DNA of 4,960 nucleotides from a virus. Taxonomy: Duplodnaviria; Heunggongvirae; Uroviricota; Caudoviricetes. The notes under the pieces were generated by a model. That model was given only the letters and a program-made list of their open reading frames with translations. It was not told where the DNA came from and made no database searches. The stretch lies in the IMG/VR virus record IMGVR_UViG_2703719355_000011, positions 1 through 4,960 of that record; one strand, written 5' to 3'. Shown piece after piece: positions 1 to 4,707 of the stretch (within the stretch, counting starts at the first letter, position 1; each line of letters opens with the position of its first letter). The translations under genes and the position numbers were made by a program.

Positions 1-353
1 TGGCGGGAATTGATATGCCGGATTTTGAGCGTGAGGATGACTGGTGGCGCAACGGTCAGAACCTTTACCTGGACAATATGGCGGTCACCGGCTTTTACCG
101 GGTGCCCCTGTCCTCTGCACAGGCGGGCGATATTCTGCTGTGCTGCTTTGGTGCTTCGGTACCGAACCATGCCGCCATTTACTGCGGCAACGGTGAGCTG
201 CTTCACCATCTGCCTGAACAACTGAGTAAACGGGAGAGGTATTCCGAAAAATGGCAACGACGAACGCATTCTGTCTGGCGTCACCGCCACTGGCACGCAT
301 CTGCCTTCACGGGGATTTGCAACGATTTGGCCGCCGCCTCAGCCTGTATGTGA
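1..353 (+). CDS. K: Tail assembly protein K (NlpC/P60-type tail tip assembly protein), C-terminal part; 5' end lies upstream of the window
   Basis: Reading frame 3 is open from the window edge (codons start at position 3) to the TAA ending at 353; the track ORF 15..353 is only the segment after the first internal ATG. The translation (MPDFEREDDWWRNGQNLYLDNMAVTGFYRVPLSSAQAGDILLCCFGASVPNHAAIYCGNGELLHHLPEQLSKRERY...) closely resembles the C-terminus of phage lambda gpK as I recall it. Position directly upstream of, and overlapping, an I homolog matches lambda gene order. Confidence 0.88.
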   Translation, partial: AGIDMPDFEREDDWWRNGQNLYLDNMAVTGFYRVPLSSAQAGDILLCCFGASVPNHAAIYCGNGELLHHLPEQLSKRERYSEKWQRRTHSVWRHRHWHASAFTGICNDLAAASACM

Positions 354-931
354 ACACGGCAGCGGAAGCCATTCGCGCCCTGTCGATGCAGATGCCGGGC
401 TTTCGCCGTCAGATGAACGAAGGCTGGTACCAGATACGTATTGCCGGTGATGACACGGCACCGGAGGCGGTGTACGCCCGTCTTCACGAACAGCTGGGTG
501 AGGGAACGGTCATCCACATTGTGCCGCGACTGGCCGGGGCCGGAAAGGGTGGACTGCAGATTGTGCTGGGGGCGGCGGCCATCGTGGGGTCGTTCTTCAC
601 TGCCGGGGCATCAATGGCGTTATGGGGTTCAGCCCTGGCAGCCGGCGGTTTTTCTGCCACCACGATGCTGTTTTCACTGGGTGCCAGCATGATACTGGGT
701 GGTGTGGCACAGATGCTGGCCCCGAAGCCAAAAACACCGGAATACAGGGCAACGGATAACGGTAAACAGAACACGTACTTTTCGTCGCTGGATAACATGA
801 TTGCCCAGGGGAACCCGATGCCGGTGCCTTACGGTGAAATGCTGGTTGGCTCACGGCGAATCTCCCAGGACATCAGTACCCGTGATGAAGGCGGTGACGG
901 GAAGGTGGTGGTTATCGGGCGGCAGGCATAA
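251..931 (+). CDS. I: Tail assembly protein I (tail tip assembly, ubiquitin-like N-terminus with Gly/Ala-rich hydrophobic C-terminal half)
   Basis: ATG at 251 preceded by the Shine-Dalgarno-like GGGAGAGG (231..238); 226-aa ORF ending at TAA 929..931. The translation (MATTNAFCLASPPLARICLHGDLQRFGRR...NGKQNTYFSSLDNMIAQGNPMPVPYGEMLVGSRRISQDISTRDEGGDGKVVVIGRQA) is recognisably similar to lambda gpI along its length. The 103-nt out-of-frame overlap with K (251..353) matches the lambda K/I arrangement. Confidence 0.93.
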   Translation: MATTNAFCLASPPLARICLHGDLQRFGRRLSLYVNTAAEAIRALSMQMPGFRRQMNEGWYQIRIAGDDTAPEAVYARLHEQLGEGTVIHIVPRLAGAGKGGLQIVLGAAAIVGSFFTAGASMALWGSALAAGGFSATTMLFSLGASMILGGVAQMLAPKPKTPEYRATDNGKQNTYFSSLDNMIAQGNPMPVPYGEMLVGSRRISQDISTRDEGGDGKVVVIGRQA

Positions 932-943
932 AAGCGAAAAAAT

Positions 944-967
944 CCCGCAGTGACCGAAGGCTGCGGG
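944..967 (-). terminator. Terminator-like hairpin (perfect 7-bp stem CCCGCAG/CTGCGGG, 10-nt loop) immediately 3' of I; the U-tract follows it only on the minus strand
   Basis: Seen directly: CCCGCAG (944..950), loop tgaccgaagg, CTGCGGG (961..967). On the + strand the downstream sequence is aacagaaaatg (not T-rich). On the - strand the hairpin is followed by ATTTTTTCGCTTT (complement of 931..943), which looks like an intrinsic terminator for a leftward transcript. No promoter was identified for such a transcript. Confidence 0.35.
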
Positions 968-968
968 A

Positions 969-984
969 ACAGAAAATGAAGATT
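969..984 (+). repeat. Direct repeat copy 1 (ACAGAAAATG-AAGAT) in the I-J spacer
   Basis: The 10-mer ACAGAAAATG at 969..978 is identical to 1059..1068, and the following AAGAT also recurs in copy 2 after a 2-nt TG insertion. Each copy sits just 3' of a GC-rich palindrome (944..967 and 1027..1058). Confidence 0.45.
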
Positions 985-1058
985 AACCACAGGGAGTTTT
1001 GTTTTTATTGGCCCGAAAAAACTGTAACGCCCGGGAATGATATCTGCCACGGGGGCGT

Positions 1059-1076
1059 ACAGAAAATGTGAAGATA
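1059..1076 (+). repeat. Direct repeat copy 2 (ACAGAAAATG-TG-AAGAT) in the I-J spacer
   Basis: Identical 10-mer to 969..978, about 90 bp downstream. Preceded by the imperfect palindrome ACGCCC...GGGCGT (1027..1032 / 1053..1058). Suggests an imperfect ~90-bp tandem duplication or paired binding sites. Confidence 0.45.
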
Positions 1077-1101
1077 TTCAGAATTTTTATTCAGTCATGA
1101 T

Positions 1102-1134
1102 ACAGGCATCCTCCGGGATGCCTGTTGTTTTTGT
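1102..1134 (+). terminator. Rho-independent terminator-like stem-loop (10-bp perfect stem, UCCG tetraloop, then TGTTTTTGT) 33 nt upstream of the J start codon
   Basis: Seen directly: ACAGGCATCC (1102..1111), loop TCCG (1112..1115), GGATGCCTGT (1116..1125), then tgtttttgt (1126..1134). The T-rich tract follows the hairpin only on the + strand. Strength and function are not measurable from sequence; in a late operon such a site would normally be read through by Q-antiterminated polymerase. Confidence 0.55.
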
Positions 1135-1166
1135 GCGTAACAGTTATCACAGTAAAGGGTGAGACA

Positions 1167-4100
1167 ATGGGCAAAGGTGGCGGCAAGGCGCACACGCCGG
1201 TTGAGGCAAAGGACAATCTTAAGTCCACGCAGATGATGAGCGTGATTGATGCGATTGGTGAAGGGCCGATTGAAGGTCCGGTGAAGGGGCTGCAGAGTAT
1301 CCTGGTGAACAAAACCCCGCTGACGGACACGGACGGTAATCCTGTGATACATGGTGTGACAGCGGTCTGGCGCGCCGGGGAGCAGGAGCAGACACCACCT
1401 GAAGGCTTTGAGTCCTCCGGGGCGGAAACCGCACTGGGCGTGGAAGTGACGAAGGCAAAGCCGGTGACGCGCACCATTACGTCCGCGAACATTGACCGCC
1501 TGCGGGTCACCTTCGGGGTGCAGTCACTGTTGGAGACCACCTCAAAGGGCGACCGTAATCCCTCTTCTGTCCGACTGCTGATTCAGTTACAGCGTAACGG
1601 TAACTGGGTGACGGAAAAGGATGTCACCATTAACGGCAAGACCACCTCGCAGTTTCTGGCGTCGGTGATTCTGGATAATCTGCCTCCCCGCCCCTTTAAC
1701 ATCCGGATGGTCAGGGAGACGGCGGACAGCACCACGGACCAGCTGCAGAACAGAACGCTGTGGTCGTCATACACCGAAATCATCGATGTGAAACAGTGCT
1801 ACCCGAACACGGCCATTGTGGGGATGCAGGTGGATGCGGAGCAGTTTGGTGGTCAGCAGATGACGGTGAACTACCATATCCGCGGTCGCATCATCCAGGT
1901 GCCGTCAAACTATGACCCGGAAAAACGCACGTACAGTGGTATCTGGGACGGCAGTCTGAAACCGGCATACAGCAACAATCCGGCCTGGTGTCTGTGGGAC
2001 ATGCTGACTCACCCGCGCTACGGCATGGGAAAACGTCTGGGGGCGGCGGATGTGGACAAGTGGGCGCTGTATGCCATCGGGCAGTACTGCGACCAGATGG
2101 TGCCGGATGGCTTCGGGGGCACCGAGCCGCGGATGACCTTCAATGCGTACCTGGCACAACAGCGTAAGGCGTGGGATGTTCTCAGTGATTTCTGCTCGGC
2201 GATGCGCTGTATGCCGGTATGGAACGGTCAGACGCTGACGTTCGTTCAGGACCGCCCGTCGGATGTGGTGTGGCCGTACACCAACAGCGATGTGGTGGTG
2301 GATGATAACGGCGTGGGATTCCGCTACAGCTTCAGTGCCCTGAAGGACCGGCACACGGCGGTGGAGGTGAATTACACCGACCCGCAGAACGGCTGGCAGA
2401 CCTCCACGGAACTGGTGGAAGACCCGGAAGCCATACTGCGCTACGGGCGCAATCTGCTGAAGATGGACGCGTTCGGCTGTACCAGCCGCGGTCAGGCCCA
2501 CCGTGCCGGACTGTGGGTGATAAAGACCGGACTGCTGGAAACGCAGACGGTGGATTTCACGCTCGGGTCTCAGGGGCTGCGGCACACACCCGGTGACATC
2601 ATTGAAATCTGTGATAACGACTATGCCGGGACCCTGACCGGCGGACGTGTCCTGTCCATTGATGCTGCCACCCGCACCCTGACGCTGGACCGTGAAGTGA
2701 CACTTCCGGAGACCGGTGCCGCCACGGTGAACCTGATTAACGGCAGCGGTAAGCCGGTGAGTGTGGACATCACCGAACACCCCGCGCCGGACCGGATACA
2801 GGTCAGTACCCTGCCTGATGGTGTGGAGACATACGGGGTGTGGGGACTCTCCCTGCCGTCACTGCGCCGTCGCCTGTTCCGCTGTGTCTCCGTCCGGGAA
2901 AACACGGACGGCACCTTTGCCATCACGGCGGTGCAGCACGTACCGGAAAAAGAAGCCATCGTGGATAACGGTGCCCGCTTTGAGCCGCAGTCAGGTTCCC
3001 TGAACAGCGTCATCCCACCGGCAGTGCAGCACCTGACGGTGGAGGTGAGCGCAGCTGACGGCCAGTATCTGGCGCAGGCGAAATGGGACACGCCGCGGGT
3101 GGTGAAGGGTGTGCGCTTCAGTCTGCGCCTGACCAGTGGTAAGGGAACGGATGCCAGACTGGTGACCACCGCCATCACCGCAGACACGGAGCACCGTTTC
3201 AGCGGCCTGCCGCTCGGGGAATACACCCTGACGGTGCGGGCGATAAACAGCTATGGCCAGCAGGGTGAACCTGCCACCACCACCTTCCGGATTGCCGCAC
3301 CGGCAGCACCGTCGCGGATTGAGCTGACGCCGGGCTATTTTCAGATAACCGCCACGCCGCATCTTGCCGTTTATGACCCGACGGTACAGTTTGAGTTCTG
3401 GTTCTCGGAAAAGCGGATTGCGGATATCAGGCAGGTTGAAACCGCAGCCCGCTATCTTGGCTCGGCGCTGTACTGGATAGCTGCCAGTATCAATATCAAA
3501 CCGGGCCATGATTATTATTTTTATATCCGCAGTGTGAATACTGTTGGCAAATCGGCATTCGTGGAGGCTGTCGGTCGGGCGAGCGATGATGCGGAAGGTT
3601 ACCTGGATTTTTTCAAAGGAGAAATCGGGAAAACACATCTGGCCCAGGAGCTGTGGACGCAGATTGATAACGGTCAGCTTGCGCCTGACCTGGCTGAAAT
3701 CAGGACGTCCATTACGGATGTCAGCAATGAAATCACGCAGACCGTCAATAAGAAACTGGAAGACCAGAGTGCGGCAATTCAGCAGATACAGAAGGTTCAG
3801 GTTGATACAAATAATAACCTGAACAGCATGTGGGCTGTGAAGCTGCAGCAGATGCAGGACGGACGCCTTTATATCGCGGGTATTGGTGCCGGTATTGAGA
3901 ACACCCCTGACGGCATGCAGAGTCAGGTGCTGCTGGCGGCAGACAGGATTGCGATGATTAATCCTGCGAATGGCAACACAAAGCCGATGTTTGTTGGGCA
4001 GGGCGATCAGATATTCATGAACGAAGTGTTCCTGAAACGCCTGACGGCTCCCACCATTACCAGCGGCGGTAATCCTCCGGTATTTTCCCTGACACCGGAC

Positions 4101-4640
4101 GGGCGGCTGACGGCGAAAAATGCCGATATCAGCGGTAACGTGAATGCGAACTCCGGGACGCTCAACAACGTCACGATTAACGAGAACTGTCGGGTTCTGG
4201 GAAAACTGTCCGCGAACCAGATTGAAGGCGATCTCGTTAAAACAGTGAGCAAAGCTTTCCCCCGGGACTCCCGTGCACCGGAACGGTGGCCATCAGGGAC
4301 CATCACCGTCAGGGTTTATGACGATCAGCCCTTTGACCGGCAGATTGTTATTCCGGCGGTGGCATTCAGCGGCGCTAAACATGAGCGGGAGAATAACGAT
4401 ATTTATTCGTCATGCCGCCTGATAGTACGGAAAAACGGTGCTGAAATTTATAACCGTACCGCGCTGGATAATACGCTGATTTACAGTGGTGTTATTGATA
4501 TGCCTGCCGGTCACGGTCACATGACACTGGAGTTTTCGGTGTCAGCATGGCTGGTAAATAACTGGTATCCCACAGCAAGTATCAGCGATTTGCTGGTTGT
4601 GGTGATGAAGAAAGCCACTGCAGGCATCACGATTAGCTGA
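1167..4640 (+). CDS. J: Tail tip / host specificity protein J (central tail fibre, lambda gpJ family), 1157 aa
   Basis: Track ORF 1125..4640; the start is more likely the in-frame ATG at 1167 ([22 protein letters not shown]...), preceded by the purine-rich AAAGGGTGAG (1154..1163), whereas 1125 lies inside the upstream hairpin. The N-terminus and many internal blocks (e.g. [103 protein letters not shown]) match lambda gpJ as I recall it. Size and position after K-I and before lom fit. Confidence 0.96.
3015..3302 (+). other. Fibronectin type III-like domain within J (approx. aa 617..712)
   Basis: Segment [42 protein letters not shown]...[28 protein letters not shown] has the length and alternating beta-strand pattern (W...Y.L.V.A) typical of FN3 domains reported in gpJ-family proteins. 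Assigned by eye, not by a profile search. Confidence 0.5.
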
Positions 4641-4659
4641 ATTTTATAACCCAGATACG

Positions 4660-4686
4660 GGCGCCAGAAATGGTGCCTTTTTTATT
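4660..4686 (+). terminator. Rho-independent terminator-like hairpin (7-bp stem with one G-U pair, GAAA tetraloop, T6 tract) between J and lom
   Basis: Seen directly: GGCGCCA (4660..4666), GAAA (4667..4670), TGGTGCC (4671..4677), then ttttttatt (4678..4686). It begins 20 nt after the J stop (TGA 4638..4640) and ends 22 nt before the lom ATG. Confidence 0.55.
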
Positions 4687-4707
4687 GCAGAAAAGCGAGA
4701 GGTAATT

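Follow-up and report, generated by a model that had tools for sequence, protein, structure and literature searches.

What occupies the gap between the tail genes I and J, which follow one another closely in phage lambda and lie much further apart in the 4,960-nucleotide stretch of viral DNA analysed here (the window)? The genes that bound the gap are as follows.

251 to 931, plus strand: tail assembly gene I, from the ORF list and the RefSeq annotation of the identical locus in O26:H11 11368.
1167 to 4640, plus strand: J, the tail tip / host specificity gene, from the ORF list and the RefSeq annotation of the identical locus.

The spacer extends from 932 to 1166, between the TAA stop codon of I (929–931) and the ATG start codon of J (1167), which bears out the 235-bp gap of the original prediction. 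The lambda spacer, given there as a few tens of base pairs, is 60 bp, and the insertion suggested at the time amounts to ~175 bp added to it. The spacer had also been described as AT-rich, and its GC content of 0.455–0.48 does fall below that of its flanks (0.55–0.63); the RefSeq annotation places no feature within it. We give almost no credence to the idea that the spacer encodes a small protein, from either a plus-strand 31-aa ORF (976–1071) or a 41-aa ORF (1037–1162). Both ORFs are present in the window, but among 24 spacer variants their position, frame, length and start codon are all unconserved, several variants carry ACG or nothing at the position of the ATG, and the 41-aa ORF crosses a terminator hairpin. 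This agrees with the earlier statement that the spacer holds no convincing ORF.

Both hairpins that had been proposed for the ends of the spacer were found at the positions given for them. At the left end, CCCGCAG (944–950) pairs with CTGCGGG (961–967) across a 10-nt loop, and the minus strand then continues as A-UUUUUU-CGC-UUUU (943 to 931). This hairpin has the shape of a terminator for the minus strand only, and in 15 hairpin variants its stem is invariant while its loop varies. The minus strand of the spacer carries a diverged copy of a known small RNA (sRNA), described as PasB in EPEC and as EcOnc22–24 in EHEC, and not a new kind of sRNA. The parts of the predicted gene are listed here.

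937 to 1014, minus strand: predicted sRNA of the PasB / EcOnc22–24 family, ~78 nt, with its 5' end predicted at ~1014 and its 3' end at ~937 in the U-tract; from locus, probe and covariance model.
937 to 967, minus strand: intrinsic terminator of the sRNA, with stem 967 to 961 / 950 to 944, loop 960 to 951, then A and UUUUUU (942 to 937); from sequence and fold.
978 to 986, minus strand: UUAAUCUUC (plus strand: GAAGATTAA), the conserved core within the single-stranded part of the sRNA body; from alignments.
991 to 996, minus strand: CUCCCU, anti-Shine-Dalgarno-like (CUCC(U/C)U in most variants); from alignments.
998 to 1009, minus strand (read 1009 to 998): A-R-N run AAUAAAAACAAA, four repeats, (ARN)4; from a motif scan.

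The relationship was assessed with a covariance model, R1, built from 13 variants including PasB and EcOnc22, with window-type sequences left out. R1 gave a single match in the window, on the minus strand from 1030 to 929, which covered all 101 model positions (61.5 bits, E = 2.3e-9). This match lies between I and J and is antisense to them, and PasB and EcOnc22–24 lie at the same place. PasB (E2348CN_0006) is a pathogenicity-associated sRNA of EPEC O127:H6 E2348/69 (Pearl Mizrahi et al. 2021, PMC8550237), and we located it in that genome (NC_011601) on the minus strand from 1466343 to 1466261, an 83-nt stretch between E2348C_1436 (I) and E2348C_1437 (J). It has been confirmed by northern blot and RIL-seq, its levels fall in a delta-hfq strain (log2 -6.8 and -2.4), and its 37 RIL-seq partners include ler, perB, bfpB, bfpI, ftsZ and galE (PMC8550237). 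The northern probe covers the hairpin, and the PasB 3' end maps within the U-run equivalent to that of the left hairpin in the window.

EcOnc22, EcOnc23 and EcOnc24 are Hfq-bound sRNAs of the EHEC O157:H7 Sakai prophages Sp15 (Stx1), Sp14 and Sp11, respectively (Tree et al. 2014, PMC4104026). They are ~85 nt by northern blot, crosslink to Hfq and are destabilised without it (PMC4104026), and they have been listed with unknown targets (PMC7873438). All three fall in the I–J spacers of their prophages. Their northern probe, GGGAGAGAACGATGAAGATTAAC, is the tail-sense strand adjoining the hairpin, and the RNA is therefore antisense to the tail genes. If the 2014 coordinates are used as printed, the EcOnc22–24 RNA appears to lie over the right hairpin; we rejected this placement as an artefact of a ~137-bp shift between genome versions, which we reconciled through AgvB and identical HnrS copies, and the probe sequence settles the matter.

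Compared with PasB, the window copy has the same I–J locus and antisense strand, the same terminator stem and U-tract abutting the I stop codon, the same upstream block and spacing, and the same architecture of ARN run, CUCC(U/C)U, UUAAUCUUC and terminator. Identity is 89% over the whole spacers (alignment A1) but no more than 61% in the RNA body, and the longest exact word common to the two within the gene is 17 nt. A megablast search at word size 28 would not join the window to PasB, and those are the settings used in a 2026 survey of PasB distribution (Zhu, Shabalina and Storz, bioRxiv 10.64898/2026.05.13.724894). The window type is multicopy in STEC, while PasB has been described as usually single-copy and as common in non-EPEC/EHEC strains. 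The variable stretches beside the conserved core also differ between the two, so the targets of the window variant may differ from those of PasB. EcOnc22–24 have the same locus, strand and module elements as the window copy, and the RNA body of EcOnc22 is 54% identical to it. From these alignments we infer that PasB and EcOnc22–24 form one family with variable bodies. This grouping is proposed here: no link between EcOnc22–24 and PasB was found in the cited sRNA literature, and Table S6 of PMC8550237 gives an EHEC counterpart to PasA and to PasD and none to PasB. An Rfam search of the window at E <= 1 returned no match, as did the homologous EPEC and EHEC spacers.

Other prophage sRNAs were considered and set aside. 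The anti-sRNAs AgvB and AsxR, as well as HnrS (EcOnc10–12), all from EHEC lambdoid prophages, are, like the PasB-type RNAs, short, prophage-borne, multicopy, Hfq-binding and expressed in lysogens, and they too join a variable region to a conserved terminator part and carry ARN motifs. None of them has a sequence or Rfam match to the window. AgvB (RF02702) and AsxR (RF02703) lie downstream of PR', unlike the I–J locus, and the same Rfam search did detect AgvB elsewhere in Sakai, in Sp10 and Sp17 (96.5 bits). HnrS, which has similar copy numbers (up to 9 copies), is located between the lysis genes and the DNase/terminase region, with the gene for the Rz endopeptidase on one side and that for the DNase on the other.

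Within the sRNA, the terminator stem, UUAAUCUUC, the ARN periodicity, and the TAnnnT hexamer and CRP half-sites upstream are kept across variants, and the rest of the body varies. The UUAAUCUUC core is the most conserved single-stranded part of the body, nearly invariant in 31 variants whose neighbouring positions vary. The anti-Shine-Dalgarno-like CUCCCU element may serve as a seed. Folding of the whole RNA (86 nt) gave z = -0.2, a stability not above that of shuffles, and we therefore claim no structure beyond the terminator. Low fold stability is commonly seen in sRNAs whose seed region is open. ARN runs of 3–7 repeats were kept at this position in 12 of 12 body types examined, with differing letters, and the window copy has both of the family's Hfq-binding motifs, the U6 run (942 to 937) and (ARN)4. 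ARN is the motif bound by the Hfq distal face (PMC4104026). Read 5' to 3', the sRNA would present an ARN run to the Hfq distal face, then CUCC(U/C)U, the UUAAUCUUC core, and a terminator with a U-tail for the Hfq proximal face. The terminator, a CCCGCAG / CUGCGGG stem followed by a U-run, adjoins the I stop codon as it does in PasB and EcOnc22–24, and it would stop transcription of the sRNA from entering I antisense.

The position, strand, homology, terminator anatomy and conservation patterns of the window module are direct observations; a transcript, its size and its dependence on Hfq have been demonstrated in the literature for the homologues, and by analogy probably extend to the window variant. 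An earlier suggestion of a self-contained transcription unit, such as a prophage sRNA on either strand, is supported by the ~83–85-nt Hfq-dependent RNA of the homologues and by the covariance match; RNA evidence exists for the minus strand only.

A generic sigma-70 promoter scan returned nothing in the spacer, and the promoter elements listed below are candidates that came only from the comparison of variants.

1021 to 1026, minus strand: favoured candidate -10, TACAGT; the start would be near 1014.
1037 to 1042, minus strand: alternative candidate -10, TATCAT (TATAAT in most variants); the start would be near 1030 and the RNA ~94 nt.
1064 to 1085, no strand assigned: CRP-like site AAATGTGA-AGATAT-TCAGAATT, core 1067–1082, centre 1074.5; from pattern match and conservation.

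The favoured hexamer follows a TAnnnT pattern whose distance from the centre of the CRP-like site is exactly 48.5 bp in all but two of 59 distinct modules (57 of 59), and in E2348/69 it lies 6 nt upstream of the reported PasB 5' end. The alternative, 16 bp further upstream, is the better match to TATAAT (a mean of 5.2 of 6 positions over the 59 modules), but is lost in ~4–5 modules that keep the other hexamer, and would set the CRP-like site at about -44.5, outside the standard positions for activation. The core of that site, TGTGAAGATATTCAGA (1067–1082), agrees with TGTGA-N6-TCACA at 9 of its 10 core positions and lies between AAA and TT flanks. Nowhere else in the 4,960-bp window does this pattern occur with one mismatch or fewer, and 0.16 such matches would be expected by chance. 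Among the spacer variants, variation is confined to the central six bases of the site, between invariant half-sites, and tandem arrays of the module have one CRP-like copy per module. The centre of the site is 59.5 bp from the reported PasB 5' end, and would be at about -60.5 from the start predicted with the TAnnnT hexamer. The reference positions for a class I CRP-dependent promoter are -61.5, -71.5 and so on. We propose, as a new suggestion drawn from these comparisons, that a CRP-like site upstream of each module would mean control by CRP. Overnight LB cultures contain more PasB than DMEM cultures, and the CRP-repressed sRNA Spot 42 behaves in the opposite way; stationary phase would explain the PasB difference equally well. 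An example of a CRP-activated sRNA promoter in E. coli is that of cyaR. The window module resembles such promoters in having a near-consensus CRP site upstream of a weak -10 and an Hfq-dependent sRNA gene, with the difference that CRP binding is putative here and the distance from site to start would be that of one or other -10 candidate. The arrangement suggests a weak promoter downstream of the CRP-like site, from which the favoured -10 (TACAGT, 1026 to 1021) would start an RNA near 1014 that would end, after ~78 nt, at the left hairpin and U-tract (967 to 937).

Could the window variant nonetheless be silent, a passive insertion remnant or a J 5' UTR with a decayed promoter and no independent transcript? 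The departure of its upstream -10 candidate, TATCAT, from the TATAAT kept by most variants would fit such decay, and the spacer carries no RefSeq annotation. We judge this highly improbable, as every module element is intact, including the CRP-like site, TAnnnT, ARN run, core, perfect terminator stem and U-tract. Furthermore, many unrelated STEC lineages carry the 235-bp sequence at 100% identity, and five to seven independent spacers share the window body type with point changes only.

The right hairpin is a different matter.

1102 to 1135, plus strand: intrinsic terminator with a 10-bp stem, UCCG loop and U-rich tail; from terminator scan and fold.

Its arms and loop, ACAGGCATCC-TCCG-GGATGCCTGT, occupy 1102–1125 and are followed by TGTTTTTGTG on the plus strand. 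With six G-C pairs in the 10-bp stem, a tetraloop and UGUUUUUGUG on the plus strand, it has the make-up of an intrinsic terminator, and termination is predicted. For the 81 nt surrounding it the folding score is z = -3.4, and none of 200 shuffles was as stable. In 11 variants 98% of cells are paired and there is one compensatory pair (C-G vs U-A); the covariation comes from that one pair, and the observed score was attained in 30 of 500 shuffles. A hairpin and T-run also stand at this place upstream of J in lambda and other short spacers, and tandem arrays carry the right hairpin only at their J end. The right hairpin is therefore outside the sRNA unit, a separate plus-strand terminator beside J, and the two hairpins are not, as had been supposed, the two ends of one unit. 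In a lysogen it most likely halts rightward transcription that has not been antiterminated before it reaches J, and in lytic growth Q-modified polymerase would read through it.

A strong plus-strand terminator with a U-tail might instead end a second sRNA of ~60–70 nt, starting at ~1065–1075 and finishing at 1102–1135, which would make a divergent or overlapping pair with the first. The 40 nt before the hairpin are highly conserved and AU-rich, and short sRNAs of 51–66 nt and opposite-strand sRNA dyads are known from EHEC prophages. We nevertheless consider this second RNA quite unlikely. Neither scanning nor inspection gave a convincing plus-strand promoter, the Hfq-CRAC table has no opposite-strand peak in the three Sakai spacers, and in the EPEC RIL-seq tables searched PasB is the sole I–J intergenic RNA. 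The conserved block and the hairpin also occur apart: the block accompanies every internal array module, all of which are without the hairpin, the 336–344-bp spacer class swaps the sequence directly after the block, and lambda has its hairpin and T-run without the block. Taken together, the spacer very probably consists of two independent features, a minus-strand sRNA gene and a plus-strand terminator before J.

The sRNA is fully complementary to late mRNA between I and J, and it might act mainly in cis, as an antisense RNA that alters the processing of the late tail transcript at I–J or the expression of J in its own or a related prophage. Related spacers reach 9 copies per genome and have the conserved core and hairpin in common, which speaks for such a role. 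Such a main role appears rather unlikely from what has been found for PasB: its 37 RIL-seq partners are mostly coding or 5'UTR regions of unlinked genes, as for a trans-acting sRNA, and lysogens with abundant PasB show hardly any transcription of the tail genes. By analogy with PasB, the sRNA of the window would be expressed from the prophage in the lysogen, be stabilised by Hfq, and pair in trans with host and virulence mRNAs, and the variable parts of the body would give each variant a target set of its own.

We found the spacer in 706 of 5426 complete E. coli genomes (~13%; median copy number 3), mostly in Stx-converting and related prophages. It also occurs in 147 phage records, the majority of them from Stx-converting phages; up to 9 related prophages per genome carry the same spacer. 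Its length falls into classes of 235–260 (the window class), 336–344, 421–425, 662–714, 848–851 and 914 bp, as compared with 60 bp in lambda. The comparison of these classes suggests, as a further new proposal, that I–J spacers can hold arrays of 1–4 sRNA modules or a sodC gene; sodC, a moron, was found at this place in other spacers. The region from ~931 to 1090, the left two-thirds of the spacer, would itself be an sRNA moron that has entered the I–J junction and is transcribed from the minus strand, antisense to the tail operon. Like the morons of lambdoid phages (Juhala et al. 2000, as cited in PMC4104026), it is extra DNA in the late operon relative to lambda, here between two conserved late genes, in an orientation that allows expression from a repressed prophage. 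It has a clear terminator of its own and a putative promoter, with two conserved -10 candidates and a CRP-like site, while the generic promoter scan was empty. It differs from morons in that its cargo is a non-coding RNA, not a protein gene, and in that the cassette can be repeated 2–4 times in tandem.

A broader reading, which we hold tentatively and put a little short of an even chance, is that the I–J junction is a cassette site for diversifying CRP-driven, Hfq-dependent sRNAs, present singly or in arrays of 2–4 that recombine at module borders. PasB and EcOnc22–24 would then both be drawn from one much larger family, broken up by word-based searches, and one STEC cell, with its multiple prophages, might hold up to a dozen carbon-responsive sRNAs. 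As part of the same joint reading, and with equal reserve, the four parts of each cassette would be a CRP site and a weak promoter, then an sRNA of ~80 nt in which variable flanks surround a conserved core, and finally a terminator.

In EHEC and EPEC, DNA acquired horizontally is linked to the host regulatory network through prophage sRNAs, and PasB contacts the ler, perB and bfp transcripts. The sRNA of the I–J spacer is absent from Rfam and from genome annotation, and it is much commoner and more variable than its two published names suggest; a covariance model finds genes of this family that word-based searches miss, which is a gain for annotation. If the CRP site is real, it would couple prophage-encoded regulation to carbon availability, and the variable bodies and tandem arrays would provide a compact means of diversifying targets.

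The spacer between the tail genes I and J lies in the tail-tip part of a lambdoid prophage, which is laid out in the window as follows.

Features of the window
Left edge: end of K
251-931, plus strand: I, tail gene
932-1166: I-J spacer, 235 bp
1167-4640, plus strand: J, tail gene
From 4708: Ail/Lom-type gene, start only in the window, with its own Shine-Dalgarno sequence

The original prediction had described this spacer as AT-richer than its flanks and devoid of a convincing ORF, and both points were confirmed: its GC content is 0.455-0.48 versus 0.55-0.63 in the surroundings, and its two short plus-strand ORFs were not conserved among the 24 spacer variants compared. The start of I differs between RefSeq (193 aa, later start; comparison locus L001:5419-6000) and the longest window ORF (226 aa, 251-931), which overlaps the end of K by ~100 nt, like lambda I. 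The 67-bp spacer between J and lom (4641-4707) holds another plus-strand terminator-like hairpin, at 4659-4678, followed by TTTTTTATT.

At the left end of the spacer we found the perfect 7-bp hairpin that had been predicted (944-967), in which CCCGCAG (944-950) pairs with CTGCGGG (961-967). Since the sequence 3' of it on the minus strand reads A-UUUUUU-CGC-UUUU, it has the shape of a terminator for leftward transcription only. Although an Rfam 15 search of the window returned no match at E <= 1, this position is that of a published small RNA. PasB of EPEC E2348/69 was mapped to NC_011601 1466343→1466261, an 83-nt minus-strand RNA between E2348C_1436 and E2348C_1437 (Table S6, PMC8550237), which are I and J of prophage PP6. 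It therefore lies within the 240-bp PP6 I-J spacer, antisense to both genes and with its end 5 nt away from the stop codon of I, and this spacer aligns with that of the window over its full length, with 89% column identity. Northern blotting confirmed PasB, whose level fell by log2 6.8 and 2.4 when hfq was deleted, and RIL-seq gave it 37 partners, among them ler, perB, bfpB, bfpI, ftsZ, galE and rplX under activating conditions (PMC8550237).

In EHEC Sakai, EcOnc22, EcOnc23 and EcOnc24 of prophages Sp15, Sp14 and Sp11 are ~85 nt by northern blot and unstable without Hfq (PMC4104026), and we found that all three prophages carry 240-bp I-J spacers of the window family. The 2014 EcOnc table uses an older Sakai genome version, with coordinates ~137 bp lower than NC_002695.2 over 1.94-2.90 Mb, a shift that matters for any reuse of the table. 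We calibrated it in two ways, from the AgvB1 table coordinates against the Rfam hit and from the HnrS copies of Sp10 and Sp12, which are identical; the intergenic region around HnrS (EcOnc11, EcOnc10), 362 bp long, is 100% identical in Sp10 (L133:747-1108) and Sp12 (L134:875-1236). In corrected coordinates, the Sakai Hfq peak spans the antisense RNA's body and terminator. In the Sakai spacer, the published northern probe for EcOnc22/23/24, GGGAGAGAACGATGAAGATTAAC..., matches the tail-sense strand directly beside the hairpin, which settles the place and strand of these RNAs independently of coordinates. The annotation splits J into two overlapping CDSs in Sp15 (L003, ECs_2943/2944) and Sp14 (L004, ECs_2719/2720), which suggests a frameshifted, probably defective J beside an intact, expressed sRNA gene.

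A covariance model trained on 13 variants, PasB and EcOnc22 among them but no window-type sequence, gave a single hit in the window, on the minus strand at 1030→929 (61.5 bits, E 2.3e-9), covering the full model. The body of the window RNA is only 61% identical to PasB and 54% to EcOnc22, and the longest exact word shared with PasB within the gene is 17 nt. As the 2026 Pas sRNA survey relied on megablast at a word size of 28 (bioRxiv 10.64898/2026.05.13.724894), this explains why STEC copies were not counted as PasB; the same divergence accounts for the lack of an EHEC PasB homologue in Table S6 of PMC8550237. From the alignments we infer that PasB and EcOnc22-24 form one family, a link that we did not find stated in the source papers.

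The predicted window RNA reads (G)GGCC-AAUAAAAACAAA-A-CUCCCU-GUGG-UUAAUCUUC-AUUUUCUGUU-[CCCGCAG CCUUCGGUCA CUGCGGG]-A-UUUUUU. Across 31 distinct left modules, the terminator stem and U-run were invariant, UUAAUCUUC was nearly so, and CUCC(U/C)U was retained in most variants. A run of three to seven A-R-N repeat units was always there, with varying letters, and the other body positions vary, so that the 31 sequences have 17 distinct bodies.

No part of the spacer is more conserved than GAAAATGTGAAGATATTCAGAATTTTTA at 1063-1090, which falls outside the RNA. Nine of its 10 core positions agree with the CRP consensus TGTGA-N6-TCACA, flanked by A- and T-rich arms. The 4960-bp window contains no other site of this kind, against a chance expectation of 0.16; changes among variants are limited to the central six bases. 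We measured distances from the centre of this site in 59 distinct modules. A TAnnnT hexamer lies 48.5 bp away in 57 of them (TACAGT in the window, 1026→1021), and a near-consensus TATAAT lies at 32.5 bp with a mean match of 5.2/6 (TATCAT in the window, 1042→1037). We favour TAnnnT as the -10 element, as it lies 6 nt upstream of the reported 5' end of PasB, predicts the observed size of 78-83 nt, agrees with the 5' edge of the EcOnc22 Hfq peak and places the CRP-like site at about -60.5, near the class I position; our confidence in the exact start site is low. The TATAAT-type hexamer, closer to consensus, is the less favoured candidate: it would yield an RNA of ~94-98 nt that requires 5' trimming, would put the CRP-like site at a non-standard -44.5, and is lost in ~4-5 modules that retain TAnnnT. 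PasB is more abundant after overnight static culture in LB than in exponentially growing DMEM cultures (PMC8550237), whereas the CRP-repressed Spot 42 is ~5-fold higher in DMEM in the expression data. This contrast is circumstantial support for CRP control, and stationary phase could explain it equally well; on the sequence evidence, we lean slightly towards CRP control of the sRNA.

The shortness of the lambda I-J spacer was borne out (60 bp), and the proposal of an insertion relative to lambda is supported by the size classes among 92 distinct spacers from 234 loci.

Size classes of I-J spacers (a module comprises minus-strand terminator, RNA body, -10 candidates and CRP-like block)
59-60 bp: lambda type
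71-90 bp: hairpin upstream of J, without sRNA module
235-260 bp: one module (window class)
336-344 bp: one module and a different right part
421-425 bp: two modules
914 bp: four modules
662-714 bp and 848-851 bp: sodC (Cu/Zn superoxide dismutase), minus strand
1599 bp: 343-type spacer broken by a transposase-like insertion

Tandem arrays hold two, three or four modules (e.g. L187:316-1229, 914 bp; L136:9815-10239, 425 bp; L177), each complete in all four elements; one module type departs from the rest in its body and in its terminator stem (CUCCCG/CGGGAG). Since 67 complete E. coli genomes carry the four-module array intact, it is not an assembly artefact. The sodC spacers measure 848-851 bp in L067, L047, L057 and others, and 662-714 bp in L030, L042 and L044, although the 662-bp spacer of L044 has instead a 185-aa plus-strand ORF. 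In the 851-bp class the TATAAT box and CRP-like block are lost. The sRNA-like body and terminator are retained there, downstream of sodC and its own hairpin, so the sRNA part might arise as a sodC 3'-UTR product. In L162 (1599 bp), ~1.25 kb of insertion-sequence-like DNA with transposase-like ORFs follows just after the CRP-like block. I-J sequences 100% identical to lambda, DE3 and HK630 occur in assemblies labelled Neobacillus, Pseudomonas, Shewanella, Bradyrhizobium, Enterococcus and others (L011-L024, L028, L035, L036, L038, L046), often on short low-coverage contigs; these, and an E. coli-type prophage I gene (97% identity) labelled Streptomyces flavalbus (L008), look like assembly contamination.

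The right hairpin was also found as predicted, at 1102-1125 with a UCCG loop followed by UGUUUUUGUG on the plus strand; a terminator scan detected it, and the 81-nt region around it folds much more stably than shuffled sequences (z = -3.4). In 11 variants 98% of stem cells were paired, and one pair is C-G in 5 variants and U-A in 4, with U-G as an intermediate, a modest covariation whose score was attained by 30 of 500 shuffles. A hairpin and T-run also stand directly upstream of J in spacers without the sRNA module (lambda, 60 bp; Citrobacter, 71 bp; Enterobacter-type, 86-90 bp). In two- and four-module spacers the hairpin is confined to the J-proximal end and missing from internal junctions, and the 336-344-bp class diverges right after the conserved block. 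These patterns indicate that the unit of inheritance runs from the I stop codon to ~1090 and that the hairpin belongs to the J-proximal end. The hairpins had been proposed to bound one self-contained unit with an sRNA on either strand; the predicted minus-strand sRNA at the left hairpin stands, and the right hairpin is a separate feature. Our promoter scan found no promoter for a plus-strand sRNA ending there, the Hfq data of PMC4104026 contain no opposite-strand peak in the Sakai spacers, and the searched tables of PMC8550237 list no plus-strand I-J sRNA in EPEC. We read the right hairpin instead as a plus-strand terminator; general lambda biology suggests that in the lysogen it would halt non-antiterminated transcription ahead of J, and that Q-modified polymerase would override it. 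L116 (260-bp spacer) and the 245-246-bp variants differ in the number of copies of a short tandem repeat (CAGACAT, part of TCAGACATCAGACATCAGACATCAGACAGG) located between this terminator and the ribosome-binding site of J.

The 235-bp spacer is present in 706 of 5426 complete E. coli genomes, at a median of three and a maximum of nine places per genome, and none of these copies carries an annotated feature. Identity reaches 100% for many of them in STEC strains (O26, O121, O157 and others). Among phage records, 147 contain the spacer, most of these from Stx1a-, Stx2a- or Stx2c-converting phages. The left part of the spacer is very probably a real, independent sRNA gene. Its kind is already known, since the RNA has been detected twice under separate names, in EHEC as EcOnc22-24 and in EPEC as PasB, the latter with a list of RIL-seq targets; the copy in the window is a divergent, uncharacterised variant of this type. 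What the present comparison would add is the link between PasB and EcOnc22-24, a CRP-like site with fixed promoter geometry, and the organisation of the I-J junction into cassettes and arrays.
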